From assembly GCA_951406725.2 (NCBI GenBank), contig OX597842.1, positions 19,778,001 to 19,842,000 on the forward strand: 64,000 nt of DNA. The letters are read 5' to 3'. The notes beneath the pieces are model-generated. The model was not told the origin of the DNA. It was given only the letters and a program-made list of their open reading frames with translations, and did no database searches. The first letter of the stretch is position 1. Each line of letters starts with the position of its first letter. The DNA comes from Octopus vulgaris. Its lineage: Eukaryota. Below are positions 24,355-64,000 of the stretch, piece after piece. Made by a program: the position numbers and the translations under genes.

Positions 24355-24479
24355 TTATTTCTTAAAATATTTGTAGCCGAACAAAGCGAGTCCAACAAGG
24401 AGTCCAGCAAGGAAGAGTGAGCCAAAAATGATTCCGACAATCTCGAGTGTAGTTAGTCCATGAGGTTTAGGTTTCGGAT
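24355..24479 (-). CDS. Gene A terminal exon: stalk, transmembrane helix and short tail
   Basis: Acceptor tttattgtttgtcaattgcag. In phase 1 it translates (N)PKPKPHGLTTLEIVGIIFGSLFLAGLLVGLALFGYKYFKK*, in frame with the upstream Ig-like exon. Confidence 0.85.
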
Positions 24480-25834: not shown

Positions 25835-26083
25835 TCTTTATCTCCAAATCAATGTCTGCAGCATTAAGGTTGTCATCATCAAATTTCCAAGTCAAACATT
25901 CCTTAGTTACGTTTCTGATCCAAAGCGTGGAGGTATCTTCTAAATGAGTCACTTTATACTGAGAGCTATTAACGCATGTCCTGTCACATTCATATTTATA
26001 ATTGTGGCACTTCCAAACCACCGGTCGTTTCATATCAGATATTGTTATCGAAAGGGTGAGGTTTCCATTGAGCACAGCAGGTC
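25835..26083 (-). CDS. Gene A Ig-like exon A2 (249 bp, phase 1-1)
   Basis: Acceptor gatttctttatttcag, donor gtaagg. Open frame (x)PAVLNGNLTLSITISDMKRPVVWKCHNYKYECDRTCVNSSQYKVTHLEDTSTLWIRNVTKECLTWKFDDDNLNAADIDLEIK. Confidence 0.88.
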
Positions 26084-26484: not shown

Positions 26485-26486
<2 letters not shown>

Positions 26487-27780: not shown

Positions 27781-28412
27781 AAGAAGAATATATTTACCAC
27801 TTTGGGTGATGTTATACTTTTGTGTCCTTGACAAACCTGTAAAGATGAAAACAAAAATTTTGATTTTTGAAAATTTTGAAGTCCATTGTGAAGATGGCCC
27901 CTCTACTTTCCCTCAACCAGGAAGGGCAACCAGTTTTTATCTGCTCGGGGCCCATGGCAAAGGGGATCATACAGTGGACATGTCTGAAAGGGCTGAAGAC
28001 CAGCAACTGCCATTTTGTCAAAACCCTAATAAACTTTTTCAGGTTTCACTTGAAGAGGAAAATCAGGGTGGAGAGGTAAGTGCTGGCTTCCAAGCAGTTT
28101 GTTGAAAGGTGGGTGAGAGGGGTGAGCATTACCTGAGTGAATGGGCCTTCTCTCAGAGTGTACCTGTATATTGGAGAGGAAAGACTGGGAGAGGGCATCA
28201 ACCCTGGTGGCCAGGGAGACCTTGGATTTTGTGGGCTTTCTTTATGTGTGGCCCTTCAAAGTCCCCCTTCTATCAGGGGTTTTACTTTGACTTTCTTTTA
28301 TTCATTGTATGACTTTTTACATGCTAAAACCCACACTGGACCCTCCCGAATGTTTTGCTTTGTGTTAGCCCTCTGTGGTTAATAAAGAAATTATTATAAA
28401 TCATTTCCTTAC

Positions 28413-28661
28413 TCTTTATCTTCAAATCAATTCTTCCAATATTAAGGTTGTCATCTTCGAATTTCCAAGTCGAACATTTCTTAGTTACTTTTCTGATCCA
28501 AAGCTTGGAGGTATCTCCACTATGTATTACTTTATAGTAAGGGCCATCAGCGCATGTCCTGTCACATTCATATTTATAATTCTGGCACTTCCAAACCACC
28601 GGTCGTTTCATATCAGATATTGTTATCGAAAGGGTGAGGTTTCTATTGAGCACAGCAGGTC
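28413..28661 (-). CDS. Gene A Ig-like exon A1 (249 bp, phase 1-1)
   Basis: Same splice sites as A2. (x)PAVLNRNLTLSITISDMKRPVVWKCQNYKYECDRTCADGPYYKVIHSGDTSKLWIRKVTKKCSTWKFEDDNLNIGRIDLKIK. Confidence 0.88.
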
Positions 28662-28939
28662 CTGAAATAAAGAAATCAGTTAAGAAGTTTGCTTTTCAAT
28701 CATACGGTTCTGGGTTCAGTCCCACTACACAGCACCTCGGGAAAGTGTCTTCTACTACAGCATCAGCCTTGTGAGTGGATTTTCAAGATGGAAATTGAAA
28801 GAAGCCCATTGTATGTATATGTGTGTGTATATATATACATACACACTTGTGTGTTTCAAAGCCTTGTGAGTGGATTTGATAGATGGAAACTGAAAGAAGC
28901 CCATTGTTTATATATATGTATATATATATATATATATGT

Positions 28940-29320
28940 AAATAGAAAATTATTATTTCTAAGTCCCTGAATGAGAAACATTCAGTAACATTACTCGAGA
29001 GTAAGGATTATTTGCCAGCATAATATGGCAGTCCTAGTTAGGGTGATTGTTACTGTTATCTAGCCCTAGGAAACACTGCCTCCAGCTGGGTATATGACAC
29101 GCTATCTATGTCCTATGGGATGCTAAACTCCCTTGTTTGAAAATATAAGGATGCAGCAAGTGTGTCATATAGCCTGCTGGAGACGATATTTCCTAGGGCT
29201 AAGGAACAGTAACAATCGTCCTAACCAGGACTGCCACATTATGTTGGCAAATAATCTCTACCCTAGAGTACTGTTACTCAATGTCTTTTGTTCAGAGATT
29301 TAGAAATAATTTTCTATTTG
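28940..29320. repeat. Palindromic element inside the duplicated unit (also at about 52160-52540 and 58733-59112)
   Basis: Imperfect inverted arms of about 165 bp: AAATAGAAAATTATTATTTCTAAG... and ...TTAGAAATAATTTTCTATTT. Confidence 0.8.
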
Positions 29321-31219
29321 TTAGATCAGAGACTTTGTGTCACTTTGGAAAGTATATATTTTGGACAAGAGTTTAGTGGAGTCATCTGTAGCCGAGCAGT
29401 TATTCTGTGCTGATGAAGGGAAATAACCCAGAGACCATTGGTATGCAGATAGATGATGTTTCCTAAGACTAAATTTACAGTATCATTCGTCCTAACCAAG
29501 ACTGCCACATTATGTTGGCAAATATATATATATATAAGTTCAGCAAAAATTTAGATTCAAATGAATATGGTACTTAATTTAGATGCACCAGAATTTTGTA
29601 TGGTGTTATCCATAGAAATCCGTGGGGTGATTATAATGAAAATAAGCAATAAGAATGACTCCGGTAATTTGGTACGATCGTTTCGTACTACATCATTTTA
29701 TTAAATTTTGTAAGTATTACAACAGTTTTAAAATACTGAGCACTCATCAGCCAATTATAGAGGTTTTCTGTTAATACAAACATTTTCATATCACGTGGCA
29801 ACATTATAGAGAAGGTAGATATATAGACAAAGATGTGGATTTAAATTTTAAGAACGTATGATGTAGTGGAACAACCAAATCTTAGTACCTCATATGTTCT
29901 TAAAATTTAAATCCACATCTTTGTCTATATATCTACCTTCTCTATAATGTTGCCACTTGATTTGATAACTTTTTTATTAATGGAAAGCCTCTATAATTGG
30001 CTGATGAGTACTCAGCATCTTATAGAGGGATTAGGCTATTATCAGCTCCCGGAAAAGATTTTAACAGGATACTTTTAGAGATGATGAGGACAGCAGTAAA
30101 GAAGAAGCTGGATTTAGGAAGAACCGTTCATGTGGAGATCAAACCGCCACTCTTGGTATCATTGTAGAGCAAAGCGCAGAGTGGAATGCACTCTATCTGC
30201 GACAATTTCATCTCAATTGAAGGAGAGGGGCCTTCTCCGTCCGGGTTGCGGATCCGTGGAATAAGCTGCCGGACGAGATAGTGAAGATGCCGACGACCGC
30301 TCGATTCAAAGTCTCCCTTGACCACAAATGGCCTGAACTCTTTGCATGAACACCACCCTGTACATAACTCCATGTCCCCCTAAATGGCCTTGCTTTTTTT
30401 GCTTTTTGAGCCAAAAAATTAACTTAACTTAGCTTAACTTGGATATAGAAAGAAAGGTAGGCCTAAGAACTCGTGGCAGAGATCAACAAAAAACGAACTA
30501 GAGAAAGGGGGACATTCATGGCAGAGTATAAGTACAGAGGCGAAAAATTATGCAACATGGAATTCAATTATGAGTGGCCTATACTCCGCGTTGGAGGGTC
30601 AAAGGCAGGAAAGAAGAATATATTTACCACTTTGGGTGATCTTATACTTTTGTGCCCTTGACAAATCTGTAAAAGACGAAAACAAAAATTTTTGATTTTA
30701 AGATGAAGTAATTCAAAATAATGTGAATAAATGAACATTACATTTCACAGTAATTTGATTGCTAAAGGATTAAACCAGCCATATCTGTTTTATGTTCTAA
30801 GTGGCTGGGTCCAGCCCCTCACACCTACCCTACAATGTCAGTCTAAAAATAAACAATCACATCATCAAAATGTCAAAACTACAAGATAACGAATGATTAA
30901 TTCAAAAACCAAGTCTAAATGAGCATTACATTAAACGGAATAAACTGATTGCTAACGAGTTAAAGTAGCCATACCTGGCACAAAGATTCTACCTGTTTCG
31001 TGTTTAAACTGGTAATGGGTCATCCTTTTACACCTGTCTTACAATGTCATTCTAAAAATGAACAGACAAGGACTGCTATGTAAAGAAGTGCTGATCTTTA
31101 ACTGCGGAGGCAATCTGTGGAAGAGGTGGACCCTGAAAGGTGCAGGACAAAACGGTGGAACATGAGGGCTTTGGATGTTGAGGCTGACATGTATTGATAA
31201 GTGACTGCGACTGCCAAAA

Positions 31220-32735: not shown

Positions 32736-33529
32736 CGGATAGATAGACAGTGGTTTTGAAAGATAGTGGGTGATTCTCAAAGACAGTACCAAGATTAGTG
32801 TTGTATGGGGTGGGTGATGGGTATGAGGACTCACTGTTAATTAACCAGGGTGGGATATAGGGAATGTTTTGGGACCTGAGGTTCTGTAAATAAGTTGTTA
32901 ATGAGGCAGATAATTTATAAAGTTAATCCAAACATGAAAGCACAAAAAAAAACACAACACGAGGACATGGAACAAATATAGTATTATTGGACGCTCAGGA
33001 AAGAAGGAGGGTTTAATGTTTCGAGTGGAGCTCTTCATCGGAAACAAATGAGAAGGAAAGATCAAGAGAAGGGAAGACAGAGAATTTATAAGTGGGATTG
33101 TGGTGGAAAATCATGAATTTTGGAAATTTTCTTGCATAAGATGCATCAACAAAATTGGGAAAATCCCTACCAAAACAAAGAAAATCCTCCTTATGTGAGT
33201 GACCCCATTCCAGACCCCTGTGCACCTGAGTAAGTTTGCCTTAACAAAAATAAGTTATGGAAAGAAATTAAATAAAATATAAATAAAACTTACAGAGAAA
33301 TGTTACAAACAATAAGCAGAACAAGATCCATTTAGCCATGATCTGAAAAAATAATTTTCAAAAGCTGCAAAATAACAAAGTTTATAGCCCAGGGTCCGAG
33401 GCTGGTCAGGCTGAGAAAAACAAACAGTCAAAATGTCATCAGTCACTCTTTAATAGATTTATGGTCAAGCCTGTGGCATTGGAGATCTTATTCTTAACTA
33501 TTTCGAATACTACAGAACGCTGTACAGTA

Positions 33530-34018: not shown

Positions 34019-35963
34019 GTAAAATTTGAAGAGAGACAGATTTAAACTTTGCACTGTTTCTGCCCCCCCCCCTTTTAGTTTTATCAATTACTATACAACA
34101 CTAAAGCAACTGCATTTTTTGTCTCATTCTTTCTTCTTGATGAGTGAAAACAAATACCAAATTACAGGTATTTGTATAATTGTGGCTTTCCAGGTAGAAT
34201 CCTGGTTTAAACAGTCCTTATAATTTCAGAAAATTTTTGCAACACACACAAATGAATATGATTATTGAAAAGACAGCATGGTGTTTCACTTTCTGGATCA
34301 TAAAATGAAATATCATCTTAATCATTAATTCAAGCGAATCAATGTCAGAAAATAGCATATCGATATATTACTGATGTTCACCTTAATTTTACGAAATAAT
34401 CTTTAATATATATCTTGTGTTTTTATTACAATAAAAACCAATATTTACAACAGAATCTCTTCTTTTTGGACAAACCTTATAGTTGTGGCTGGATGCAATT
34501 GGAAGTTTCAAAAACCAACTGGGAAATACAAACAACGAAAAGAACTTAGTTTCTGAAAGAAAAAAAGAAAAGATATTATTTCAAAAGTTTTACTGAAAAG
34601 GTACTGATTTTTAAAAAATTCAAAAAGTAAAAAGGTTATGAGGGGTTATATGGGGTACTTAAACGAAAATTCCACCAAAAATCAAATTTTAAAACCAGTT
34701 TTTTTTAACAGCATAAATGCTTTGATGGGGATAAAAATATTGAAAAACATTGAATACAGGTTAGAGCGAGGAAGAAACAAGAAAGGTGGTTGTGGGATGT
34801 GTTAGAAACAACAGGCAGATCTCCCTTAAATGACACACCTTTCTTTACTCATAACTTTCTGACAAATGGATATTAATGGATATATTGGAATTTGTTGTGA
34901 AAAAGTTTTCCGAGGGTGGGGCGAAAAGTTTTGGAAAATTCACATCAGTCGGCTTTATTTCCTCATAACTTTTGGAAAAATGGATATTTCTTTAGTGGAA
35001 TTTTCAACAAATATCATTCGGATTGTGAAGGTGACGATTATATCAGAATTTAATATGTAAACAAAATTTGTGGGCTCACACACATACATAATTACATACA
35101 CATCGTGAATTGAAACTTGAAATTTTGATAGCACAATGTTATATCTGTCAGTATGTGTGTGTGTGTGCAAACCTATCATATTTTTTTTTTCATAATAGAC
35201 TTCAATATTACTCTTTGCTCTTTTACTTATTTCAGTCATTTGGCTGCGGCCATGCTGGAGCACCGCCTTTAGCCGAGGAAATCGACCCCCAGGACTTATT
35301 CTTTGTAAGCCCAGTACTTATTCTATCGGTCTATTACGTACATGTATATGAAAGATAAGGAGTGTAGATGTGTGTTTGGGTGTGATTAACTAGAAGTAGA
35401 TACAGCTGAATAGGGCGTGGTTGCGCGTACATCCGTTTTCTTTCATAAACAGGGACACACATCTTTTACTTTCTCCTCCTCTCACTCAGAAGCAAATATC
35501 GCCTTCCACTCATCATCAAAATAAAAGAAAATAAAATAATTTTTTACGGGAATTAACGAACAATCCGCTGATCAAATTCGACGCTTCTGCAGCCAAAGCC
35601 GAAAGATTTCCAGACGTAATTCTTCAGTTTGGGTAAACAACGTCAGTCACTGACACAAACTTCTCTTATGGCACAAACGAAGAGGCGGTACTACTTGAGT
35701 ATAGACGTCACGGTGCGCACTTGTGTAGTCATGACTAGTCGATCCATACTTTGAGTTTTATTTACTTTGATTTTAAAAAATTCACTAACACTAACCCTGA
35801 CCCTACTTTTAGCCTTTCGTCATTTTTTCTTCATTGATAAATTAATTTAATTGTTACGCGTGTGTCTAAAATTATTCGTTTTGTTTTGAGACTCACGTGT
35901 ATTGTTTAAACTATTTTCCATTGCTTAAGAAAGAAAAAAACCCAAAGCAATGGAAAATAATTT

Positions 35964-45888: not shown

Positions 45889-46309
45889 ATTGTATTATCC
45901 AAGTAATTTACTTCCATCAATGTTCTGTATCTATGCCGTTTTTTTTTTTTTGCCTTTGTAACAGATGAAATAAACACATTATATTCTGAAACTATATGCA
46001 GTATAATTAAAATGGGATATGTGAAAGCAAAAAAAAAAACTAGAAGTGATAGAGCAAGACAGTTCAGAAATTTGAATTCACCACATCAAAATTAGTAAAA
46101 GACACCTATTCACATACTTACCTCAGAGCGAAAAAATTCTTCACAGTCCTTGGTAAATTCCGTTCTCGTAACTGTTTTCACAGCTTCATACTCAACCCAG
46201 CTTGATTTTTCAAATGGCTGTGAAACGAAAGTCTTATTATTTTAGTCTTTGGTTTGTAAGTGTTATTTCCTATTTGATTCTATTTAGAAATGAAAAGAAA
46301 TGACGATTT

Positions 46310-46830
46310 TGCTTTGTTGCTACCCAAGGACAAAAACTGTGTTACACAATGTTATCTGTTGAAGGCCTTCAACCCCTCTCAAATACAATGTTCATATAAG
46401 ATTGAGTCTGTATTTTCATGAAGCCTTGTTTAAAAAGAATCTAGCAGTAAATGTCGTATATAAATGAACCCCAAGCCTTTGTCATAACCAAAGCTACACT
46501 CTGTCTTAAACTGTTGTTTCTCTCTTATTTCAGAATATCAGAGGACATTGGCATGAGAGGAATTTTACTGCAGAAGCGTCATCAATATTTATCATATTTT
46601 GAAGTCGATGTTACACAGAACCTGACAGAAGAATCCTGTTTCTGTAATTAACAGACACTCCTGCACCTTTAAATATAAACAACATTAATGGGTTCTCATT
46701 AGAGGCATCTGCATCATTCTGAGAGCCTTCCTCTTTGGTGAATTACTCTCTGAAGTAGATCACTTGACCACTCACAGACTCATTCATTAGGAGAGAAACC
46801 ATGTCATTGTGATATCTGTGGTGAATGGTT
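46310..46830 (+). pseudogene. Third ZNF paralogue, opposite orientation, finger array deleted
   Basis: 46310-46650 matches the reverse complement of the ZNF 5' flank (about 10600-10485 and 10075-9870). 46745-46830 matches the last finger, stop and 3' UTR. Confidence 0.8.
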
Positions 46831-46859
46831 TCAGGAAGGTTTCCAGTAATACAGGTCAG

Positions 46860-47840
46860 GGATCTTTTCGGTTTGACCGGCAGTTTTTAAAAATAATTTC
46901 CACGTAACTAAACACTTTTAAACTTTGTATACTGGTAGAATGTGTTTATAAAACATCTTTTTCTCTTGGCTTTATTGAGAAAATTCTATAGTTTGTAAGA
47001 TATTTGGGATCTTTTCGGTTTGAACGGCAGTTTTTTAAAATAATTTCCATGTAACTAAACACTTTTAAACTTCGTATACTGGTAGAATGTGTTTATAAAA
47101 CATCTTTTTCTCTTGGCTTTATTGAGAAAATTCTATAGTTTGTAAGATATTTGGGATCTTTTAGGTTTGAACGGCAGTTTTTAAAAATAATTTCCACGTA
47201 CCTAAGCACTTTTAAACTTTGTATACTGGTAGAATGTGTTTATAAAACATCTTTTTCTCTTGGCTTTATTGAGAAAATTCTATAATTTGTAAGATATTTG
47301 GGATCTTTTCAGTTTGACCGGCAGTTTTTTAAAATAATTTCCACGTAACTAAGCACTTTTAAACTTTGTATACTGGTAGAATGTGTTTATAAAACATCTT
47401 TTTCTCTTGGTTTTATTGAGAAAATTCTATAGTTTGTAAGATATTTGGGATCTTTTCGGTTTGACCGGCAGTTTTTAAAAATAATTTCCACGTAACTAAG
47501 CACTTTCAAACTTCGTATACTGGTAGAATGTGTTTATAAAACATCTTTTCTTCTTGGCTTTATTGAGAAAATTCCATAGTTTATAAGATATTTGTTGTTT
47601 TTTCCTTCAATTTCTGCAATTTCAACCAATCAATGACGTCTCTTGAGGTGAAAACATTCTCTGCCGTATGAATATGTCCCTCGTTTAAGAAACAGATTGG
47701 GTTTATTAACATTTCTGAAGAAATAAGATACCTTCCCCGCACCCCTAACCTAACCCTAGAGCAGATTGAAATGCAATAGATCGATACTAGGGTCATAATT
47801 ATGGGTGACATTTTGATATCACACTGCTAGAAAAAAATCC
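46860..47840. repeat. GGATC-TIR MITE with 5 tandem terminal units of about 147 bp
   Basis: GGATCTTTT starts at about 46860, 47007, 47154, 47300 and 47448. Confidence 0.9.
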
Positions 47841-47895
47841 CATTTTCTGTAGTGGTTTCTTCATTAAAAGAAGAATTTCCTGAAGGCCATGAACA

Positions 47896-48083
47896 ATATT
47901 GATACAGTCACTCTTCTCTATGATGAGAAATATATCTGTAGTTAATTGTCTTTTTTCAGAGAAGGATATACCACAGAATCAGTTACATGGTTTCTCTTCC
48001 ATATCAATGTGTGTCTGTGTTTATCTAAGAGATTTATTTGAGAGAACCATTCACCACAGATATCACAATGACATGGTTTCTCT
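47896..48083 (-). pseudogene. ZNF 3' UTR fragment (decayed fingers), inverted relative to 46745-46830
   Basis: Near-identical to 7095-7282. Confidence 0.85.
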
Positions 48084-48549
48084 AATTTCCACGTAACTAA
48101 ACAGCCAGGGATACAGGCATCCAGCAACAGGACCTCCGTAATGCTATGATGGATCGTGAAGTCTGGCGTAGCATGGTAAATTCCATTGTCTCTACCACGG
48201 TCGCGATACCAGAGGGCGCACACTCTCTTACCCTGATGTAATCTCCAGGTGTACAGGCATCCAGCAACAGGACCTCCGTAATGCTATGATGGATCGTGAA
48301 GTCTGGTGTAGCATGGTAAATTCCATTGTCTCGACCACGGTCACGATACCAGAGGGCGCACACTCTCCTACCCTGATGTAATCTCCAGGGATACAGGCAT
48401 CCAGCAACAGGACTTCCGTAATGCTATGATGGACTGTGAAGTCTGGCGTAGCATGGTAAATTCCATTGTCTTGACCACGGTCAAACAATGATGATGATGA
48501 TATCTAATTCTCTCCCAATTTTACCATTTGTCTGTCGTAGTTCACTGTG

Positions 48550-48934: not shown

Positions 48935-50374
48935 AGTTCACTGTGAACCTGAAAGGAAAGATTTTGCACCTTTTATGGCATTCACAACCATCCAATAACA
49001 CAAAAAAAGTTGGACACTTGATAATAACTTATAATTTTATGCAAGAAATAATCAGCGTTTCAGATATAAAAATAAATAAACAATTATACAGAAAAGGAAA
49101 TAAAATCGCAAAAGGTCCTTGACTTGCTTAAAGAAAACAACTTCCAGGCCAGATTCCCGAAGCAGTAGGAATTGTGGGGCCAGTGTATTACTGTGAAAGG
49201 TGAGTATTTCACAGGAGATGTTGTTAAAACTTTGGTAAATTAGTAATTTTTATGAAACATAGCTTGTCCGAGAACTTTTTGATACCATCTCGTATTTTTC
49301 TTGCAAATTCTGTAAAGAGTTTTTATTTTTTTTAATAAATAAATATTTTGATTTTGTTTGCTTATTTTTCTGTTGTTTTTATCTTATATAACATGTCTTT
49401 ACATGATACACGTATAATACAATACCACATTAAAATACAAATCCTAAACCAAAAGAAACACAAACAGGAGGTGCAGCAAGTACCCTTATAGGGATCACCG
49501 AACCCATTCTGTAAGGCGAGGCGCCAACAATGGTAAGAACTTCACTGTGGCAAATGTCACAGGTGGAAGAAATGGGTCACACTTCATTTCCTATGCTTAA
49601 GGATTTTGTTCTCGTTGGCTACGGAAGCAGTGACCCTTTGATTATAATTGAAGATATTTATGCTAAAGCAATGGGTATACATATGCAAATGTACCCCACC
49701 GACTTTGTTTCTTCATAACTTCTGGAAAAATGGGTATTTTTAAATGAAAATTTTGAGAAATACCTTTAAGAAAGTGTAGATTGCAATTATATTGGAATAG
49801 CACACGTTGGTGGGACACCACACATACGCATACACATCACATTCTTTTGCAAGAAATTTGTTTTTATAAAAAATTTCAATTAAAAAATATGAATCGTTTC
49901 TCTTTGTATTCACTTTTTGAAATTCTAAGATTCAGTCAAAATTTTCAAATTTGGAATATTCATGTAATTTTCCATGCTGAATCTGCTACCGCTCACTTTT
50001 TCTGGACATAATTTTTTAAAAAGTGGACCTTTTCTGTTTGTGTTTTTCCCTTCAGCTCCTTCGGTTTCAAATTTATTGATTTCAAGTTTAGTGTATTGAT
50101 GTAGTTTTGTCTGTTAATTATATAAATGAAATTAGTTGTTGTCCTAAATTGATAAATATACAGTTAATAGCTTTTAAGATTTTTAAATTCCCAGTAAAAG
50201 ACGGAGCAGAGTTTTGGAAAAAATATTGCTAAAATATGGATATAATTTATTTAAAAAACCAACTATGCCAATGCAGTCAGTGAAAGTCTTAATCTGATAA
50301 ATAGAATTATTTTTTTCTTTTAGAGGATAAATATAGATAAAAAAACACAAATTGTAGCGTTCTTATACAAATGT

Positions 50375-50508
50375 TTATTTCTTAAAATATTTGCAGCAGA
50401 AGAAAGAGTGTCCGACAAGGATTATAGCAAGGCTGAGTATGCCAAGAATGATTCCAACAATCTCGAGTGTTCTGAGGGGTCTTGATCCATTAGGTTCAGG
50501 TTACGGAT
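50375..50508 (-). CDS. Gene B terminal TM exon with a premature TAA at its third codon
   Basis: Acceptor tttattgtttgtcaactgcag. (N)P*PEPNGSRPLRTLEIVGIILGILSLAIILVGHSFFCCKYFKK*, with the stop at 50501-50503. Confidence 0.8.
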
Positions 50509-51639
50509 CTGCAGTTGACAAACAATAAAATATATACCTTTTGTTTTTAACAAAAAATAGTAATATCTCCCAAGTTTGACCATTTTCATACTAAACTATT
50601 AAAAAATACTTTCGTTTCTGTTATACAAATTCCATTTCAAAGTGATCTAAAGGAAAAGTCCCCATCAAAATTTCCAGTAACACTATGTTGCACACATAAG
50701 CTTGGTTATATAAAGCCTTGTGAGTGGATTTGGTAGACGGAAACTGAAAGAAGCCCGTTGTATATATGTATATATAATGTATATATATATGTGTGTTTTT
50801 GTGTCTGTTTGTCCCCCTAGCATTGCTTGACAACTGATGCTGGGGTGTCTATGTCCCCATCACTTAGCAGTTCAGCAAGAGAACCGATAGAATAAGTACT
50901 AGGCTTACAAAGAATAAATCCTGGGATCGATTTGATAGACAAAAGGCGGTGCTCCAGCATGGCCACAGTCAAATGACTGAAACAAGTAAAAAGAGAAAGA
51001 GAAAGAGAATATAACCCGCCCCCCACACACACCTTGGTATTGACCCCCTCATCCTTTGCCCTTGTGGCAAATAAAAGAAACCCTTATTATATACAACTAT
51101 CAGCTGAGTCCATTGTGAAGATGGCCCCTCTACTTTCCCTCAACCAGGAAGGGTAATCAGTTTTTATCTGCTCGGGGCCCATGGCAAAGGGGATCATACA
51201 GTGGACATGTCTGAAAGGGCTGAATACTAGCAATTGGCATTTTTTCAAAACCCTAATAAGCTTTTTCAGGTTTCACTTGAAGAGGAAAATCAGGGTGGAG
51301 AGGTAAGTGCTGGCTTCCAAGCAGTTTGTTGAAAGGTGGGTGAGAGGGGTGAGCATTACCTGAGTGAATGGGCCTTCTCTCAGAGTGTACCTGTATATTG
51401 GAGAGGAAAGACTGGGAGAGGGCATCCACCTTGGTGGTCAGGGAGACCTTGGATTTTGTGGGCTTTCTTTACGTGTGGCCCTTGAAAGTCCCCCCACTAT
51501 CAGGGATCTTACTTTGAATTTCTTTTATTCTTTGTATGACTTTTTACATGCTAAAACCCACACTGGACCCTCCCGAATGTTTTGCTTTGTGTTAGCCCTC
51601 TGTGGTTAATAAAGAAATTATTATAAATCATTTCCTTAC

Positions 51640-51888
51640 TCTTTATCTTCAAATCAATTCTTCCAACTTTAAGGTTGTCGTCTTCAAATCTCCAAGTCAA
51701 ACATTCCTTAGTTACGTTTTTGATCCAAAGCTTGGAGGTATCTCCAAAATGAGTCACTTTATAGTCAGGGCCATCAGCGCATGTCCTGTCACATTCATAT
51801 CTATTATCCTGGCAAATCCAAGCCACCGGTCGTTTCATGTGTGGTATATATATCACAAGGTTGAGATCTCTATAGAGCTCAGCAGTTC
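51640..51888 (-). CDS. Gene B Ig-like exon B3 (249 bp, phase 1-1)
   Basis: (x)TAELYRDLNLVIYIPHMKRPVAWICQDNRYECDRTCADGPDYKVTHFGDTSKLWIKNVTKECLTWRFEDDNLKVGRIDLKIK, with AG and GTAAG boundaries. Confidence 0.88.
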
Positions 51889-53188
51889 CTGAAATGAAGA
51901 AATCAGTTAAGAAGTTTGCTTCCAAATCATACGATCCCGGGTTCAGTCCCACTACACAGCACCTGGGAAAGTGTCTTCTACTACAGCCTCAGCCTTGTGA
52001 GTGGATTTTCAAGATGGAAACTGAAAGAAGCCCATTCTATGTATAATTGTGTGTATGTGTGTGTATATATATATATACATACACACTTGTGTCTTTCAAA
52101 GCCTTGTGAGTGTATTTGATAGATGGAAACTGAAAGAAGCCCATTGTTTATATATATGTAAATAGAAAATTATTATTTCTAAGTCCCTGAATGAGAAACA
52201 TTCAGTAACATTAATCGAGAGTAAAGATTATTTGCCAACATAATATGGCAGTCCTAGTTAGGGTGATTGTTACTGCTATTTAGCCCTAGGAAACACTGCC
52301 TCCAGCTGGGTATATGACACATTATCTATGTCCTATGGGATGCTAAACTCCCTTGTTTGAAAATATAAGGATGCAGCTAGTGCGTCATATAGCCAGCTGG
52401 AGGCAACGTTTCCTAGGGCTAAAGAACAGTAACAATCGTCCTAACCAGGACTGCAATATTATGTTGGCAAATAATCTTTACCCTAGAGTACTGTTACTCA
52501 ATGTCTTTTGTTCAGAGATTTAGAAATAATTTTCTATTTGTTAGATCAGTGACTGTGTGTCACTTTGAAAAGTATATATTTTGGACAAGAGTTTAGTGGA
52601 GTAATCTCTAGACGAGCAGTTATTCGGTGCTGATGAAGGGAAATAACCCAGAGACCATTGGTATGCAGATAATGTGCTGTATAACCAGCTGGAGATGATG
52701 TTTCCTGAGACTAAATAACAGTACCATTCGTCCTAACCAGGACTGCCACATTATGTTAGCAAATAATCTTTACTTTATATATATATATATATATGAGTTC
52801 AAATGAAAATGGTACTTAATTTAGATGCACCAGAATTTTGTATGGTGTTATCCATAGAAATCCGTGGGGTGATTATAATGAAAATAAGCAACAAGAATTA
52901 CTCCGGTAATTTGGTACGATCGTTTCGTACTACATCATTTTATTAAATGTTGTAAGTATTACAACAGTTTTAAAATACTGAGCACTCATCAGCCAATTAT
53001 AGAGGTTTTCCATTAATACAAAAATTTTCATGTCGAGTGGCAACATGATAGAGAAGAAAGCCTCTATAATTGGCTGATGAGTACTCAGCATCTTAAATCT
53101 GTTGTAATACTTACAACATTTAATAAAGTGATGTAGTACGAAACGATCGTACCAAATTACCGGAGTTATTCTTGTTGCTTATTTTGAG

Positions 53189-53225
<37 letters not shown>

Positions 53226-53399
53226 GTATATATATATATATTAAGTGCAGGGCATCACTGGCAAGTTATAAATATATAAACACACAAGAGATAAGCAAGG
53301 GACAAAATAACAAAATACTTAACACCCAGTCATAATATTGTAAGAGGCAGCTTCTACCTGGCCGGAATCCATGCTAGGTATCAGTCAGCAAGTAATTTT

Positions 53400-53560
53400 C
53401 TTCATGGAACATGATTAGTTTCTTGCAGACTATTCATTCCATGACTTTGCTGATGTCTGAGGTCAGAGAGACAGGCCTATAATTTTTAGCACCTGCCCTG
53501 CTTCCTCCTTTATGAATACAGCATATTATTCCTTCTTTCAGTTTGTCTGGGAGCTTACCA
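53400..53560 (-). mobile_element. CR1/Jockey-type RT fragment
   Basis: LPDKLKEGIICCIHKGGSR....NYRPVSLTSDISKVME. Confidence 0.75.
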
Positions 53561-56500
53561 ATTAAAAGAAGCTGCAGTGGCATTAGGAAGGGCATCCAGC
53601 TGTAGAAACACTGCCAGATCAGGCAGGAGCCTGGTGCAGCCTCCTGGCTTCCCAGACCCCGGTCGAACCGTCCAACCCGTGCTAGCATGGAAAGCGGACG
53701 TTAAACGATGATGATGATGATGATGATGAAATAGCAGTAGAAATGTTTCATCCATTATTTTCTAAGATAGGGCAGGAAGAAAATGTGCCTAATGACTGGA
53801 AAGAGGGACTCATTGTGAAATTGCCAAAAAAAGGAGATTTAAGCTTTTGCGGAAATTATAAACGGATTATGCTATTATCAGCTCCCGGAAAAGATTTTAA
53901 CAGAATACTTTTAGAGATGATGAGGACAGCAGTTGACAAATTGTTGTGTAAAGAAGAAGCTGGATTTAGGAAGAGATCAAATCGCCACTCTTTGTATCAT
54001 CGTAGAGCAAAGCGCAGAGTGGAATGCACCGATTTATTGAATTCGAAAAAGCATTCGATAGTGTAGATAGGGAAGGCTTATTGAAAATTATGCAGCACTA
54101 TGGCATACCAGACAAGTACATATCTATAATAAGAGCAACTTACCAAGGAATGTCATGCCGAGTCTTGCAAGGAAACGGAGCTACGGATAAATTCGATATA
54201 AAAACAGGAGTTCGACAGGGCTGTATACTTTCTCCCGTTTTATTTCTATTAGTCATAGATTGGATTATGAAGGAAACTACGATTGAAAGCCAAACAAGCA
54301 TTGAATGGACGGATGTGGAAGCTGTAGAAGATCTCGACTTTGCAGATGATAGGGGGCTGCTTTCACAAACATAGCCAAATGCAAAATAAAATGTCAAAAT
54401 TAGAAGCAATAGCTTCCAAACTAGGATTGAAAGTCAACCTCAAATCAATAATTATGCACGTTAATGAAGTAAACATCAAATGTATTAAACTAGAAACTGG
54501 TGAACTAGAGGATGTAGCCAAGTTTATGTATTCAGGTAGTAAGATAACGTTTTCAGGTGTCACCGACGAAGATATTAAGGTGAGAATAAGTAAGGCAAGG
54601 ACCGTTTTTCACCTGTTAAAGAAAGTATGGAGCGCAAGTGTAATTTCAATAAACAACAAAATAACCTGTCGAAAGAGCTGTTCTTAACTCCTGCTCCAGA
54701 GCGTCAGCTCGGAGTCACTCCAAAAAGCTCTATCTGTGACGATTTCATCTCAATCGAAGGAGAGGGGCCTTCTCTGTCAAGGTTGCAGATCCGTGGAATA
54801 AGCTGCCGGACGAGATAGTGAAGATGCCGACGACCGGTCGGTCCAAAGTCTCCCTCGACCACAAATGGCCTGAACTCTTTGCATGAACACCACCCTGTAC
54901 ATAACTCCATGTCCCCCTACATGGCCTTTTGCTTTTTGCTTTTTGAGCCAAAATATTAACTTAAGATTTTTTAACACTAATGTTAAAGCGATGTTCTTGT
55001 ATGGGGCTGAGACATGGCGAACAAAAGTTAAGTCAAATAAGCAAATACAACCATTCATCAACAGATACTTGCGTAGTATACTTAAAATTAGATGGCCCGA
55101 ACACATACGCAATATGGAACTATGGTAAAGAACAAATCAAGTTTCGATTAGGGAGCAAATATTTAAGAAAGAGTGGAAGTGGATAGGTAGCACGATTAGA
55201 AAAGACACACTAAATGTAGCGTAAAGTGTTTAAAGTGGAAACCGGTTGGATGTAAAAAGAAAGGTAGGCCTAAGAACTCGTGGCGTAGATCAACACAAAA
55301 GGAACTAGAGAAAGGGGGACATTCATGGCAGAGTATAAGTACAGAAGTGAAAAATTATGAAACATGGAAGTCAATTATGAGTGGCCTATACTCCACGTTG
55401 GAGGGTCAAAGGTAGGAAAGAAGAATATATTTACCACTTTGGTAGATCTTATAAATGCTATCACTTGAGAAACCTGTAAAAGATGAAAACAAAAATTTTG
55501 ATTTTAAGATGAAATATTTCAAAATAATGTGAATAAATGAACATTATATTTCACAGTAATTTGATTGCTAAATGATTAAACCAGCAATATCTGTTTTATG
55601 TTCTAAGTGGCCGGGTCCAGCCCCCACACCTACCCAACAATGTCAGTCTAAAAATAAACAACCACATCATCAAAATGTCAAAACTACAAGATAATGAATG
55701 ATTAATTCGAAAACCAAGGCTAAATGAGCATTACATTAAACGGAATAAACTGATTGCTAACGAGTTAAAGTAGCCATACCTGGCACAAAGATTCTACCTG
55801 TTTCGTGTTTAAACTGGTAATGGGTCAGCCTTTTACACCTGTCTTACAATGTCATTCTAAAAATGAACAGACAAGGACTGCTATGTAAAGAAGTGCTGAT
55901 CTCTAGCTGCGGAGGCAATCTGTGGAAGAGGTGGACCCTGGAAGGTGCAGGACAAAACGGTGGAACATGAGGGCTTTGGATGTTGAGGCTGACATGTATT
56001 GATAAGTGACTGCAATTCCTGGGGATTTGCTCTTCTTCATAAGATATGTCAAGCTAATGGAAATCAAGGATGTGGCCAGTGTCGGTAATTAGTAAAAGGC
56101 ACCTGTGCCGGTGACGTGTAATTTATAAATCTTTCATCAAAACTTTATTGAGAATTTTCAAAATGTGCTCCATCGGCCCCCTGGATATTTCAAATGTATC
56201 TGTAGACTTGTGAAACACATTTGGAAGTATTTGAGGAGTTTATCTTCTGCACTGCTAACTGAATGCATTCTTTAAGTTCAGCTAAAAGATTGCTCCATCT
56301 GGGGCATTGTGGGAAAGAAATTAATTGCAATCGTATTGAAAAAAGTTGTCATGGACAGATAAGGAATGAAAATAAAATTATAAACAAAATTAAAAATTTA
56401 ATCACTTAACATATATTAAATATGTGAAGCAGAAACAAAAAGGACCTTTAAAAAAAGGGTCCAATTTCACTGAAATAGATAATTAATTCTGGGACAGTCT

Positions 56501-58197
56501 GTATTGAAAACACTTAGCCCTACTCAAATGACCCTACACTCTGAAATCTTTACCAAGAACAAAGTCCATGGGGTAAAGAGTGGCTATAAGGGGAATCCAG
56601 GTGGGCAGATATGGAGATAACGATGTAAATAAACAAATAAAACTGAGTGGGTTAGATATACATCCATGCGTACACGTTAATAGAGAGGAAGCAAAGACTG
56701 AAAAATTTCAGACGGAGAATATTCAAGCATCAGAAATCTGAATTAAATATTAACAGAGCAAACTTACACAGACTAGAAAGGCACAGAAAATCAAAGGGGA
56801 GAATGTATGGTGTTACAGCTCCTTTCTTGGCGATCGGGGTTACTTCATCTTTGGTAGATGTACCATCCATACTCACAAATAGGTCTCACTTTTTTTCACC
56901 AAAAATTTAGATAAAAATCAGGGGTACAAACTATCCAATAGATATTACAGGGATCTGAAGTGGTGTATCGGTAGTCCATGGCATACCCTGGACCTGGGCT
57001 TTTCAGTTTTAAAATTGTTATGGAAACTTTTCTGCAATGTTTACTAGAAAGCAGAAACTGGAAGTTTGGTATTTGGTATTTTTTTGACATCCACTCACCC
57101 CAATCTTTAGTTTAAAAATTTTAATAATTGCAAACCCTACTTACAAAGTTATAGTAAGAGTTATCAATAGGCACAGAAGTGGCTGTGTGGTAAGTAGCTT
57201 GCTTACGAACCACATGGTTCCGGGTTCAGTCTCACTGTGTGGCATGTTGGGCAAGTGTCTTTTACTATAGCCTCGGGCCGACCAAAGCCTTGTGAGTGGA
57301 TTTGGTAGACAGAAACTGAAAGAAGCCCGTCGTATATATGTATATATATATATGTGTGTTTGTGTGTCTGTTTGTCCTCCAAATATCGCTTGACAACTGA
57401 TGCTGGTGTGTCTACGTCCCTATTACTTAGCAGTTCGGCAAAAGAGAACCGATAGAATAAGTACTAGGCTTACAAAGAATAAATCCTAGAGTCGATTTGA
57501 TCGACAAAAGGCGGTGCTCCAGCATGGCCACAGTCAAATGACTGAAACAAGTAAAAAGAGAAAGAGAATATAACCCCACCCACACACACACCTTGGTATT
57601 GACCCCCTCATCCTTTGCCCTTGTGGCAAATAAAAGAAACCCTTATTATATACAACTATCAGCTGAGTCCATTGTGAAGATGGCCCCTCTACTTTCCCTC
57701 AACCAGGAAGGGCAACCAGTTTTTATCTGCTCGGGCCCCATGGCAAAGGGGATCATACAGTGGACAAGTCTGAAAGGGCTGAAGACCAGCAACTGCCATT
57801 TTGTCAAAACCCTAATAAACTTTTTCAGGTTTTACTTGAAGAGCAAAATCAGGGTGGAGAGGTAACTGCTGGCTTCCAAGCAGTTTGTTGAAAGGTGGGT
57901 GAGAGAGGTGAGCATTACCTGAGTGAATGGGCCTTCTCTCAGAGTGTACCTGTATATTGGAGAGGAAAGACTGGGAGAGGGCATCCACCCTCGTGGTCAG
58001 GGAGACCATGGATTTTGTGGGCTTTCTTTACGTGTAGCCCTTGAAAGTGCCCCCACTATCAGGGGTTTTACTTTGACTTTCTTTTATTCTTTGTATGACT
58101 TTTTACATGCTAAAACCCACGCTGGACCCTCCCGAATGTTTTCCTTTGTGTTAGCCCTCTGTGGTTAATAAAGAAATTATTATAAATCATTTCTTAC

Positions 58198-58446
58198 TCT
58201 TTATCTCCAAATCAATTTTTCCAACATTAAGGTTGTCATCATCAAATTTCCAAGTCGAACATTTCTCAGTTACTTTTCTGATCCAAAGCGTGGAGGTATC
58301 TCCAAAATGAGTCACTTTATACTGAGAGCTATTAACGCATGTCTTGTCACATTCATATTTATAATTGCGGCACTTCCAAACCACCGGTCGTTTCATATCA
58401 GGTATTGTTATCGAAAGGGTGAGACATCCATTGAGCACAGCAATTC
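58198..58446 (-). CDS. Gene B Ig-like exon B2 (249 bp, phase 1-1)
   Basis: (x)IAVLNGCLTLSITIPDMKRPVVWKCRNYKYECDKTCVNSSQYKVTHFGDTSTLWIRKVTEKCSTWKFDDDNLNVGKIDLEIK, with AG and GTAAG boundaries. Confidence 0.88.
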
Positions 58447-61400
58447 CTGAAATAATGAAATCAGTTAAGAAGTTTGCTTCCAAATCATATGGTCCCGGGT
58501 TCAGTCCCACTACACTGCACCTTGGGAAAGTGTCTTCTACTACAGCCTGTGTGGATTTGCTAGATGGAAACTGAAAGAAGCCCATTGTATGTATCTGTGT
58601 GTGTGTGTATGTATATGTGTGTGTGTATATATGTATATACATACACACTTGTGTGTTTCAAAGCCTTGTGAGTGTATTTGATAGATGGAAACTGAAAGAA
58701 GCCCTTTGTTTATATATATGTATATATATATGTAAATAGAAAATTATTATTTCTAAGTCACTGAATGAGAAACATTCAGTAACATTACTCGAGAGTAAGG
58801 ATTATTTGCCAACATAATATGGCAGTCCTAGTTAGGGTGATTGTTACTGTTATCTAGCCCTAGGAAACACTGCCTCCAGCTGGGTATATGACACATTATC
58901 TATGTCCTATGGGATGCTAAACTTCCTTGTTTGAAAATATAAGGATGCAGCTAGTGTGTCATATAGCCAGTTGGAGACGATGTTTCCTAGGGCTAAGGAA
59001 CAGTAACAATCGTCCAGACCAGGACTGCCACATTATGTTGGCAAATAATCTTTACCCTAGAGTACTGTTACTCAATGTCTTTTGTTCAGAGATTTAGAAA
59101 TAATTTTCTATTTTTTAGATCAGTGACTGTGTGTCACTTTGAAAAGTATATATTTTGGACAAGAGTTTAATGGAGTCATCTCAAGCCGAGCAGTTATTCT
59201 GTGCTGATGAAGGGAAATAACACAGAGACCATTGGTATGCAGATAATGTGCTGTATAACCAGCTGGAGATGATGTTTCCTGAGACTAAATAACAGTACCA
59301 TTCGTCCTAACCAGGACTGCCACATTATGTTGGCAAATAATCTTTATTTTATATATATATATATATATATATGTATACACACAAAATAAGAAAATGGAGG
59401 AATAGATTCCTTTCAATCATCAACTTCCAGATAATACCAATTCATATAATTTATTAACTAATTATTTAGATTTAATAGGACAGGGCTGTATACTTTCTCC
59501 CGTTTTATTTCTATTATTCATAGATTGGATCATGAAGGAAACTACGATTGAAAGCCAAACAAGCATTGAATGGACGGATGTGGAAGCTGTAGAAGATCTC
59601 GACTTTGCAGATGATATAGCGCTGCTTTCACAAACATAGCCAAATGCAAAATAAAATGTCAAAATTAGAAGCAATAGCTGCCAAACAAGGATTGAAAGTC
59701 AACCTCAAATCAAAAATTATGCACGTTTATGAAGTAAACTTTGAATGTATTCAACTAGAAACTGGTGAACTAGAGGATGTAGCCGAGTTTATGTATTCAG
59801 GTAGTAAGATAACGTTTTCAGGTGGCACCGACGAAGATATTAAGGTGAGAATAAGTAAGGCAAGGACCGTTTTTCACCTGTTAAAGAAGGTATGGAGCGC
59901 AAGTGTAATTTCAATAAAGAACAAAATAACCTCTCGAAAGAGCTGTTCTTCACTCCTGCTCCAGAGCGTCGGCTGCGGGGTCACTCCGAAAAGCTCTATC
60001 TGTGACGATTTCATCTCAATCGAAGGAGAGGGGCCTTCTCTGTCCGGGTTGCGGTTCCGTGGAATAAGCTGCCGGACGAGATAGTGAAGATGCCGACGAC
60101 CGCTCGATTCAAACTCTCCCTTGACCACAAATGGCCTGAACTCTTTGCATGAACACCACCCTGTACATAACTCCATGTTCCCCTACATGGCCTTTTGCTG
60201 TTTGCTTTTTGAGCCCAAAAATTAACTTAACTTAAGTTAAGAATTTTTAACACTAACGTAAAAGTGGTGTTATTGTATGGGGCTGAGACATGGCAAACAA
60301 CAGTCAAGTCAAATAAGCAAATACAATCATTCATCAACAGATGCTTGCGTAGTATACTTAAAATTAGATGGCCCCAACACATACGCAATATGGAGCTATG
60401 GCAATGAACAAATCAAGTTTTGATTAGGGAGCAAATATTTAAGAAAAGGAGGAAGTGGATTGGTAGCACAATTAGAAAAGACACACTAAATGTAGTGAAA
60501 AGTGCTTTAAAGTGGAAACCGGTTGGATATAGAAAGAAAGGTAGGCCTAAGAACTCGTGGCATAGATCAACACAAAAGGAACTAGAGAAAGGAGGACATT
60601 CATGGCAGAGTATAAGTACAGAGGCGAAATATTATGCAACATGGAATTCAATTATGAGTGGCCTATACTCCACGTTGGAGGGTCAAATGTAGGAAACAAG
60701 AATATATTTACCACTTTGGGTGATCTTGTAAATGTTTGCACTTGAGAAACCTGTAAAAGATGAAAACAAAAATTTTTGATTTTAAGATGAAATAATTCAA
60801 AACAATGTGAATAAATGAACACTATATTTCACAGTAATTTGATTGCTAAATGATTAAACCAGCAATATCCGTTTTATGTTCTAAGTGGCCGGGTCCAGCC
60901 CCTCACACCTACCCTACAATGTCAGTCTAAAAATAAACAATCACATCAGCAAAATGTCAAAACTACAAAATAAAGAATGATTAATTCAAAAACCAAGACT
61001 AAATGAGCACTACATTAAACGAAATAAACTGATTGCTAACGAGTTAAAGTAGCCATACCTGGCACAAAGATTCTACCTGTTTCGTGTTTAAACTGGTAAT
61101 GGGTCAGCCTTTTACACCTGTCTTACAATGTCATTCTAAAAATGAACGGACAAGGACTGCTATGTAAAGAAGTGCTGATCTCTAACTGTGGAGGCAATCT
61201 GTGGAAGAGGTGGACCCTGGAAGGTGCAGGACAAAACGGTGGAACATGAGGGCTTTGGATGTTGAGGCTGACAAGTATTGATAAGTGACTGTGATTTCTG
61301 GGGATCTGCTCTTCTACAGAAGATATGTCAAGCTAATGGAAATCAAGGATGTGGCCAGTATCGGTAATTAGTAAAAGGCACCTGTGCCAGTGACGTGTAA

Positions 61401-63475
61401 TTTATAAATCTTTCCTCAAAACTTTATTGAGAATTTTCAAAATGTGCTCCATCGGCACAATGGAAATTTCAAATGTATCTGTAGACTTGTGAAACACATT
61501 TGGAAGTATTTGAGGAGTTTATCTTCTGCACTGCTAACTGAATGCATTCTTTAAGTTCAGCTAAAAGATTGCTCCATCTGGGGCATAGTGGTAAAGAAAT
61601 TAATTGCAATCGTATTGAAAAAAGCTGTCATGGACAGATAAGGAATGAAAATAAAATTATAAACAAAATTAAAAATTTAATCACTTAACATATATTAAAT
61701 ATGTGAAGCAGAGACAAAAAGGGTCTTTAAAAAAAAAGGTCCAATTTCACTGAAATAGATAATTAATTCTGGGACAGTCTGTATTGAAAACACTTAGCCC
61801 TACTCAAATGACCCTACACTCTGAAATCTTTACCAAGAACAAAGTCCATGGGGTAAAGAGTGGCTATAAGGGGAATCCAGGTGGGCAGATATGGAGATAA
61901 CGATGTAAATAAACAAATAAAACTGAGTGGGTTAGATATACATCCATGCGTACACGTTAATAGAGAGGAAGCAAAGACTGAAAAATTTCAGACGGAGAAT
62001 ATTCAAGCATCAGAAATCTGAATTAAATATTAACAGAGCAAACTTACACAGACTAGAAAGGCACAGAAAATCAAAGGGGAGAATGTATGGTGTTACAGCT
62101 CCTTTCTTGGCAATCGGGGTTACTTCATTGTTGGTAGATGTACCATCCATACTCACAAATAGGTCTCACTTTTTTTCACCAAAAATTTAGATAAAAATCA
62201 GGGGTACAAACTATCCAATAGATATCACAGGGATCTGAAGTGGTGCATCGGAGGTCCATGGCATACCCTGGACCTGGGCTTTTCAGTTTTAAAATTGTTA
62301 TGGAAACTTTTCTGCAATGTTTACTAGAAAGCAGAAACTGGAAGTTTGGTATTTGGTATTTTTTGACATCCAGTCATCCCAATCTTTAGTTTAAAAATTT
62401 TGATAATTGCAAACCCTACTTACAAAGTTATAGTAAGAGTTATCAATAGGCGCAGAAGTGGCTGTGTGGTAAGTAGCTTGCTTACGAACCACATGGTTCC
62501 GGGTTCAGTCTCACTGTGTGGCATGTTGGGCAAGTGTCTTCTACTATAGCCTTGGGCCGACCAAAGCCTTGTGAGTGGATTTGGTAGACAGAAACTGAAA
62601 GAAGCCCGTCGTATATATGTATATATATATATGTGTGTTTGTGTGTCTGTTTGTCCTCCAAACATCGCTTGACAACTGATGCTGGTGTGTCTATGTCCCC
62701 GTTACTTAGCAGTTCGGCAAAAGAGAACTGATAGAATAAGTACTAGGCTTACAAGGAATAAATCCTGGGGTCGATTTGATCGACAAAACGCGGTGCTCCT
62801 GCATGGCCACAGTCAAATGACTGAAACAAGTAAAAAGAGAAAAAGAATATAACCCCCACACACACACACCTTGGTATTGACCCCCTCATCCTTTGCCCTT
62901 GTGGCAAATAAAAGAAACCCTTATTATATACAACTATCAGCTGAGTTCATTGTGAAGATGGCCCCTCTACTTTCCTTCAACCAGGAAGGGTAATCAGTTT
63001 TTATCTGCTCAGGGCCCATTGCAAAAGGGATCATACAGTGGACATGTCTGAAAGGGCTGAAGACCAGCAATTGCCATTTTGTCAAAACCCTAATAAACTT
63101 TGTCAGGTTTCACTTGAAGAGGAAAATCAGGGTGGAGAGGTAAGTGCTGGCTTCCAAGCAGTTTGTTGAAAGGTGGGTGAGAGAGGTGAGCATTACCTGA
63201 GTGAATGGGCCTTCTCTCAAAGTGTACCTGTATATTGGAGAGGAAAGACCGGGAGAGGGCATCCACCCTGGTGGTCAGGGAGACCTTGGATTTACTGGGC
63301 TTTCGTAACGCGTAGCCCTTGACAGTCCCCCCACTATCAGGTCTCTTACTTTGAATTTCTTTTATTCTTTGTATGACTTTTTACATGCTAAAACCCACAC
63401 TGTACCCTCCCGAATGTTTTCCTTTGTGTTAGCCCTCTGTGGTTAATAAAGAAATTATTATAAATCATTTCTTAC

Positions 63476-63724
63476 TCTTTATCTCCAAATCAATTTTTCG
63501 AACGTTAAGGTTGTCATCATCAAATATCCAAGTCAAACATTTCTTAGTTACTTTTTTGATCCAAAGCGTGGAGGTATCTCCATCCTGTGTCACTTTATAG
63601 TCAGGGCCATCAGCGCATGTCTTGTCACATTCATATTTATAATTGCGGCACATCCAAACCACCGGTCGTTTCATATAAGGTATTGTTATCGTAAGGGTGA
63701 GACATCCATTGAGCACAGCAATTC
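63476..63724 (-). CDS. Gene B Ig-like exon B1 (249 bp, phase 1-1)
   Basis: (x)IAVLNGCLTLTITIPYMKRPVVWMCRNYKYECDKTCADGPDYKVTQDGDTSTLWIKKVTKKCLTWIFDDDNLNVRKIDLEIK, with AG and GTAAG boundaries. Confidence 0.88.
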
Positions 63725-64000
63725 CTGAAATAATGAAATCAGTTAAGAAGTTTGCTTCCAAATCATATGTTCCCGGGTTCAGTCCCACTACACTGCACCT
63801 TGGGAAAGTGTCTTCTACTACAGCCTGTGTGGATTTGCTAGATGGAAACTGAAAGAAGCCCATTGTATGTATCTGTGTGTGTGTGTATGTATATGTGTGT
63901 GTGTATATATGTATATACATACACACTTGTGTGTTTCAAAGCCTTGTGAGTGTATTTGATAGATGGAAACTGAAAGAAGCCCTTTGTTTATATATATGTA

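Follow-up and report, generated by a model that had tools for sequence, protein, structure and literature searches.

In the genome of Octopus vulgaris, a stretch of 64,000 nucleotides (nt) of contig OX597842.1 (assembly GCA_951406725.2, positions 19,778,001-19,842,000, numbered here along the forward strand and referred to as the window) carries on its minus strand, at 51640-63724, an array of three immunoglobulin (Ig)-like exons, termed array A, which would make up the 3' portion of a single gene belonging to an Ig-like family of octopods. An earlier note on this DNA had raised the question of whether such exons are all included in one transcript, as beads on a string, or chosen singly or in subsets as in Dscam, and held that the sequence alone could not distinguish these options; this was a fair judgement of the sequence, and public transcript contigs and protein models do distinguish them. 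Together they indicate that array A is one transcribed gene that splices its Ig units in series and generates a probably secreted product, beside a paralog, gene B, whose product is membrane-anchored and has two domains, a reading to which we assign a probability of roughly 0.8; the product of array A is most likely a four-domain secreted protein. Serial inclusion is thus retained from the options above, with minor skipping possible, and strict exclusive choice of the Dscam type is refuted for array A.

Array A is built of tandem units of approximately 5.3 kb each, which contribute three 249-nt Ig-like exons within the window (A1, A2, and A3; Table 1). These exons and the two of paralog B (B1 and B2) all display AG/GT ends, open frames and phase 1-1, in agreement with their earlier description as frame-neutral cassettes of 249 bp; what had been overlooked is a micro-exon, and the cassette that is repeated is really one of 288 nt across two exons (39 + 249), also in phase 1-1, with all splice junctions between serial units in frame. 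The strand list of a structure model and the points at which structural alignments start indicate that the micro-exon of each unit supplies the opening strand of its domain, m2 encoding a linker together with the first strand of the Ig domain that follows. The proposed absence of transmembrane (TM) and leader exons between the Ig-like exons was confirmed, since none of nine leader-like candidates on the minus strand of 24000-64000 lies within the units, and a BLAST search with the TM exon identifies two terminal exons only, none of them inside the units. The note had also advised that the leader be sought in adjacent sequence; that of paralog B is located inside the window, and a further unit and the leader of array A are placed 5' of A1, past the window end, by a public O. 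vulgaris model (P0022), public protein models being the sole source for both.

The evidence for serial splicing stems from contigs of 4 of 24 listed runs (X1, X5, X7, and X9, from four studies and with two organism labels), mapped on 49000-64000 at 92% likeness. These contigs were taken as RNA because they contain spliced joints with GT-AG ends, their nature being only a guess in the database record, and all counts given here refer to 15 joints shown of 142. Of these 15, six show CT..AC ends, each of them at predicted exon borders; the remaining nine have non-canonical ends and are mostly within repeats. A joint between an Ig exon and the micro-exon of the next unit is found in all four runs (60748-63474 in X1, 55471-63474 in X5, and 55471-58196 in X7 and X9), as is a joint between a micro-exon and the next Ig exon (58445-60711 in X1, X7, and X9; 51887-55434 in X5, X7, and X9, X1 having a loose end that fits it). 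In three of the four runs, contig depth is equal on both sides of m3 (587.5 in X5, 149.1 in X7, and 432.8 in X9), which suggests that a single contig spans Ig exon, micro-exon and Ig exon in each of them. A3 is joined to the terminal exon (50508-51640) in two runs, X1 and X5, and the 15 listed joints include neither a joint from A1 or A2 to the terminal exon nor an unambiguous skip of a unit. The sole skip candidate, 55471-63474 in X5, involves 20 letters; A1 and A2 are identical in their first 32 and last 24 letters, and a stretch shorter than these 24 is not callable as a skip.

Public protein models also contain strings of units. All five Ig exons of the window are present, letter for letter, in O. 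vulgaris models CAI9743596.1 and CAI9743597.1. The public gene model at this locus is a fusion of several genes, in which histone H2B is joined to array A, to pieces of zinc fingers, and to gene B in one protein, and it bypasses array A's own terminal exon. In Octopus sinensis, LOC115225115 and LOC115225116, which are uncharacterised and bear automatic names only, belong with their relatives to the same family and cluster and exhibit the same repeat of micro-exon and Ig exon. The retrieved set consists of 18 isoforms of the former and eight of the latter, and a two-accession gap may hide further isoforms; all 26 models carry two to five domains (five in seven models, four in 11, three in five, and two in three), with four or five in 18/18 models of LOC115225115 and two or three in 8/8 of LOC115225116. 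Some of these models skip units or begin with alternative leaders, and the set has four or more distinct ends. A separate locus, LOC115225109, contributes its leader and domain to the start of 3 of the 18 LOC115225115 models, and only its leader to the start of one more of these and of one of the eight LOC115225116 models; such models are therefore chimeric across loci, through either real read-through or the mis-mapping of short reads. Two domains, D5 and D6, never co-occur in the O. sinensis models, and D6 would most simply be part of the next gene. A search by short length recovered five single-domain proteins, all from other loci, indicating that single-domain genes of the family exist (P0018-P0020).

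The note's assumption of a shared terminal exon holds in that there is one per array, but the terminal exon of array A provides no membrane anchor. An in-frame TAA at 50503-50501 occupies its third codon, ahead of the hydrophobic membrane segment, so that the product ends in N-P-stop and is therefore probably a secreted protein. An intact paralogous terminal exon (P0018) has a lysine at the position of this stop, and O. sinensis isoform X6 likewise ends in N-P-stop, behind a domain that matches A3.

The Ig-like character that the note attributed to these exons is borne out by the structure model of P0005, a three-domain relative from O. sinensis (19-row alignment, mean predicted local distance difference test score, pLDDT, of 77), which displays three beta-sandwiches with loose linkers and a TM helix. 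A Foldseek search with this model places Ig tandems at the top (titin, E 5.6e-10), and VIA-align superposes it on V- and I-set domains with Z of approximately 10 and a root-mean-square deviation of 2.5-3 Å over approximately 90 residues, starting within the micro-exon; the structural matches are generic Ig, with 6-20% identity. Of 19 relatives, 14 match Pfam I-set with E values of up to 0.1, the lowest being 9.8e-10, and FNIII is absent among the 22 Pfam families that the 19 relatives match. An Ig-like fold is thus supported for the domains of array A by way of the model of a close relative. Canonical V/I-set domains possess a disulfide between strands B and F and a D-x-G-x-Y-x-C motif; here the four invariant cysteines are at exon residues 25, 32, 36, and 62, none of them within the B-strand segment or at the F-strand motif position as located by alignment and strand list, and they are not the canonical pair. 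When the five bare 249-nt exons are submitted to Pfam, four match no family and one gives weak XLF and I-set matches, and structure prediction of a bare 82-residue exon, from which the micro-exon strand is absent, reaches a pLDDT of 38 (5-row alignment). A sequence search of solved structures yields titin (E 0.044) and obscurin (E 0.74) only, and ESM Atlas features, which serve as a lead only, score 0.91 with unnamed mollusc clusters and 0.86-0.87 with V/I-set clusters. A profile search of 1.84 billion representatives generated 46 hits, and the ten that were looked up are all from Octopus or Argonauta; weak profile hits include very long multi-domain proteins. More distant relatives (P0064, P0058, P0059, and P0070), located on other, larger contigs of O. 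bimaculoides, O. sinensis, and Argonauta hians, associate one such Ig-like domain with a different, cysteine-containing second domain, a layout that is possibly an older form of the family.

The five 249-nt exons are 83-93% identical in DNA, and the ratio of non-synonymous to synonymous change (dN/dS) is 1.01-4.91 in all ten exon pairs, which are not independent of each other. Exons A1 and A2 are 92.4% identical, vs 96.0% in the remainder of the unit (Fisher p = 0.009), and a pooled minimum count gives nine synonymous and 59 non-synonymous changes (p = 0.054 vs neutrality). These values are suggestive of an excess of amino-acid change, as would be expected under diversifying selection. The exon copies are mosaics: among 51 informative sites in exon and flanks, 693 of 1275 site pairs are incompatible, and only 12 adjacent pairs are, vs 27 expected, with none of 20000 permutations as low. 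This agreement of neighbouring sites beyond chance points to gene conversion or unequal crossing-over.

A plausible history would start with an ancestor arranged as leader, 39-nt micro-exon, 249-nt Ig exon and terminal exon, whose internal unit of micro-exon and Ig exon (288 coding nt, phase 1-1) would have been duplicated, with its intronic repeats, by unequal crossing-over. The main mRNA joins these units serially into a chain of Ig-like domains, of which the window holds three and the public model four. Diversity would arise mainly at the level of DNA, through the number of genes and units, gene conversion, and amino-acid change, with in-frame skipping of units as a possible minor contribution.

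In a mutually exclusive array of the Dscam1 type, each mRNA would carry one Ig unit, picked by competing RNA pairings, and several features are compatible with such an arrangement, namely the homologous, frame-neutral cassettes ahead of one terminal exon, the mutual exclusion of D5 and D6 in O. sinensis models, and the presence of intronic palindromes, which the note had suggested, together with short interspersed elements (SINEs), as the source of competing pairings. The suggestion is partly sustained for the palindromes, presumably miniature inverted-repeat transposable element (MITE)-like in the case of 52156-52540: the hairpins pair across units as strongly (-209 and -217 kcal/mol) as they do locally (-207 and -219 kcal/mol), and a cross-unit duplex would loop out A2 and m3, which is exactly one in-frame unit. 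Such pairing could permit the skipping of a unit but cannot enforce the choice of one only, and the local stem, with its 33-nt loop, should form before the cross-unit duplex. The repeats of the 57167-57567 type, which we take to be SINE-like, all have the same orientation (8/8 hits between 50300 and 64000) and therefore cannot pair with one another, and SINE-SINE pairing inside array A was rejected. A docking candidate in the unique part of the last intron (50509-50711) shows no stronger pairing with the four unit introns than shuffled sequences do, 27-73 of 100 of which equal it when perfect words only are considered; a docking site on the upstream side would be situated beyond the window. 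In addition, Ig exons are joined to the next unit in every run, single-domain models number 0 of the 26 retrieved, the listed joints include none from A1 or A2 to the terminal exon, and D6 would belong most simply to the next gene, all of which renders a Dscam1-like array very improbable. That the units should be independent small genes, each equipped with a promoter and a 3' end, an option also named in the note, is harder still to credit; although single-domain members of the family do occur as their own loci (P0018-P0020), the units of array A hold no leader-like or terminal exon and are spliced to one another.

Splicing could also be combinatorial across the cluster, with transcripts that cross neighbouring genes and mix leaders, domain sub-strings, and TM or secreted ends. 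Phase 1 is common to all internal exons, and the O. sinensis RefSeq models do mix parts across loci (LOC115225109 with LOC115225115 and LOC115225116), in addition to their varied ends and unit-skipping forms; however, short reads mis-mapped among copies that are 83-93% alike would give the same models, and the one skip candidate among the listed joints is too short to be called. The mapped stretch, 49000-64000, could not reveal joints to other genes, and we consider this possibility unlikely, if less so than the other alternatives. A more speculative and likewise unlikely variant is an octopod variable recognition system in which many leaders, interchangeable Ig units of two exons each, and termini of the TM or secreted type would be mixed both in the DNA, through conversion and unit number, and by cross-gene splicing, with hairpins that pair across units looping out whole units; if it were true, each animal or cell would have its own set of domain strings, and immune diversity or self-recognition in octopuses would gain a first candidate at the molecular level. 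It is slightly more doubtful that array A is a transcribed but decaying paralog, with a nonsense codon in its TM exon and no function of its own. The stop that replaces a lysine of the intact paralog, the bypassing of the terminal exon in the public O. vulgaris model, and a region full of repeats and young duplicates would all agree with decay, but reading frames are open and splice sites intact in all three Ig exons and in both micro-exons, O. sinensis has a model (isoform X6) with this N-P-stop end behind the matching domain, divergence is greater in exons than in introns, and nonsense-mediated decay should not act on a stop that lies in the last exon. Both the combinatorial and the decay explanations overlap in part with that of serial splicing into a secreted product, against which several points also have to be weighed. 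The contigs are short and the copies alike, so that several joints are not assignable to one copy; at 92% likeness, some joints may stem from paralogs; the joints listed are 15 of 142; the joint between A3 and the terminal exon is listed for two of four runs only, and its shorter side spans 23 letters; the stop codon is read in the genome sequence only; and the excess of amino-acid change is of borderline significance in the pooled test, the ten pairwise ratios being non-independent.

Among known systems, the vertebrate paired-receptor clusters (CEACAM/PSG, LILR/KIR, and CD300) combine duplication of phase 1-1 Ig exons and variable domain number with secreted and membrane forms and gene conversion, but no sequence relation with the octopus family was found (the structural matches being distant and generic, as above), nor are signalling motifs seen in the genes of the window. 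Members of the Dscam family possess many Ig and FNIII domains and a long cytoplasmic tail, unlike the octopus products, which terminate at a stop or carry a short tail and whose relatives show no FNIII among their Pfam matches. O. vulgaris has a separate Dscam, for which one transcript was found (PMC6339937). Pancrustacean Dscam1 shares the tandem, homologous, frame-compatible Ig exons placed before common exons, but includes exactly one variant via docking-site/selector pairing, whereas the octopus units are spliced in series (PMC8791459). The chelicerate sDscam genes and the clustered protocadherins also have tandem cassettes, some of them multi-exon, 5' of a common 3' part, and these are chosen by their own promoters, whereas the octopus units are leaderless and joined to each other (PMC10084454). 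Array A works most like Hydractinia Alr, a cluster of genes and pseudogenes with one to three tandem Ig-like domains, in which domains 2 and 3 are devoid of the canonical cysteine pair and alternative splicing generates TM and secreted forms (PMC9546547). In Alr, a domain corresponds to a single exon, an Fn3-like spacer is present, and cytoplasmic tails occur, some with immunoreceptor tyrosine-based activation or inhibition motifs (ITAM/ITIM), whereas the octopus family employs two exons (39 + 249 nt) per domain, has no such spacer in array A or paralog B, and shows none of these motifs, its tail being of approximately seven residues (PMC9546547). The likeness is one of design; for Alr1 and Alr2, the function is known (PMC9546547).

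In a mollusc, a Dscam-like array would have been a striking find, and that reading fails. There remains a cluster of expressed Ig-like genes of a non-canonical kind, represented by octopods only among the hits that were named (ten looked up of 46). Its proteins are membrane-bound or probably secreted, its exons are mosaics, and its changes tend towards amino-acid replacement; these are traits of recognition molecules engaged in an arms race, and it is the fold, the topology, and the divergence that would point to a role in recognition or adhesion, be it immune or self/non-self. The cluster could thus be a further fast-evolving invertebrate Ig-like cluster and a candidate for immune or self-recognition roles, and it offers a concrete target for work on cephalopod immunology and self-recognition. 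Literature searches by locus identifier and by the topic of octopus Ig families found no paper on an octopod Ig-like cluster, the topical ones being judged by titles and the openings of abstracts and most subscription papers lying outside their coverage, and the word immunoglobulin occurs 0 times in the available part of a paper on cephalopod tandem arrays (PMC9068888).

Table 1. Features of array A, paralog B and the associated repeats in the window (forward-strand numbering).
Feature	Position	Strand	Remarks
Ig-like exon A1	63476..63724	-	249 nt, phase 1-1; joint 60748-63474 in run X1
Micro-exon m2	60712..60750	-	39 nt, phase 1-1; joints 58445-60711 (X1, X7, X9), 60748-63474 (X1)
Ig-like exon A2	58198..58446	-	249 nt, phase 1-1; joints 58445-60711, 55471-58196
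Micro-exon m3	55435..55473	-	39 nt, phase 1-1; joints 51887-55434 (X5, X7, X9), loose end in X1; also 55471-58196 / 55471-63474
Ig-like exon A3	51640..51888	-	249 nt, phase 1-1; most divergent copy
Terminal exon of array A	50375..50508	-	homologous to TM exon; joint 50508-51640 in X1 and X5
Probable long 3' untranslated region (UTR)	49158..50374	-	contigs of depth 110-756 in X1 and X5
Probable 5' UTR exon of paralog B	34476..34552	-	approximate position, inferred via public models
Leader (signal peptide) exon of paralog B	33294..33339	-	phase 1; matches N-termini of public models
Micro-exon of paralog B	30628..30666	-	39 nt, phase 1-1
Ig exon B1	28413..28661	-	249 nt, phase 1-1
Micro-exon of paralog B	27798..27836	-	39 nt, phase 1-1
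Ig exon B2	25835..26083	-	249 nt, phase 1-1
Intact TM exon of paralog B	24355..24479	-	tail of ~7 residues
Recent tandem duplication	54214..64000	.	54214-58722 vs 59479-64000, 95.5% over 4524 nt
Hairpin, 385 nt	52156..52540	.	intron between m3 and A3
Copy of this hairpin	58730..59120	.	intron between m2 and A2
Third copy of this hairpin	28936-29320	.	between micro-exon and B1
Second hairpin element	52874..53192	.	relatives at 3134-3458, 29632-30022
SINE-like repeat	57167..57567	+	very high contig depth
SINE-like copies	50712-51002, 62446-62846	+	same strand as 57167-57567
SINE-like remnants	51908-52164, 58466-58733, 63744-64000	+	same strand as 57167-57567
Decayed reverse-transcriptase fragment in units	59479..60692	+	also ~53686-55350, 26469-27867

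Splicing of the paralog B leader directly to a 249-nt exon would yield a stop codon, and the micro-exon is therefore required in this gene, which is predicted to make a membrane-anchored protein with two domains. The micro-exon at 27798-27836 is intact, yet the public model omits it and joins B1 straight to B2. At 24355-24479, the first residues of the terminal segment of gene B differ between the public model and the translation of the window, and the Ig exons match exactly.

Downstream of the coding part of array A, 48935-49851 is 98.5% identical to 22936-23854, and the contigs that cover the probable 3' UTR may originate from a paralog or from another allele. Within this region, contigs of X1 and X5 display a 250-nt skip at 49185-49436 with non-canonical ends, which may correspond to a deletion in an allele or paralog.

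The motifs of the reverse-transcriptase fragment at 59479-60692 are those of what we take to be a long interspersed element (LINE)-like sequence. Elsewhere in the window, 13522-14380 is a long palindromic tract of simple repeats, and 15054-16630 is a tandem array of SINE-derived units of approximately 181 nt. A histone H2B reading frame at 510-818, on the minus strand, matches P0022 over its first 103 residues with 100% identity, and P0020 also begins with H2B; H2B and Ig genes seem to repeat as one larger block, fused in the public models. Arrays of 84-nt repeats, presumably of the C2H2 zinc-finger type, accompanied by stray finger pieces, some with stops, occupy 4400-9500 and 46793-48097 and are part of the block between Ig genes. 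An open, exon-like stretch of 33 codons with a GT donor, at 46119-46217 on the minus strand, is used by the fused public model.

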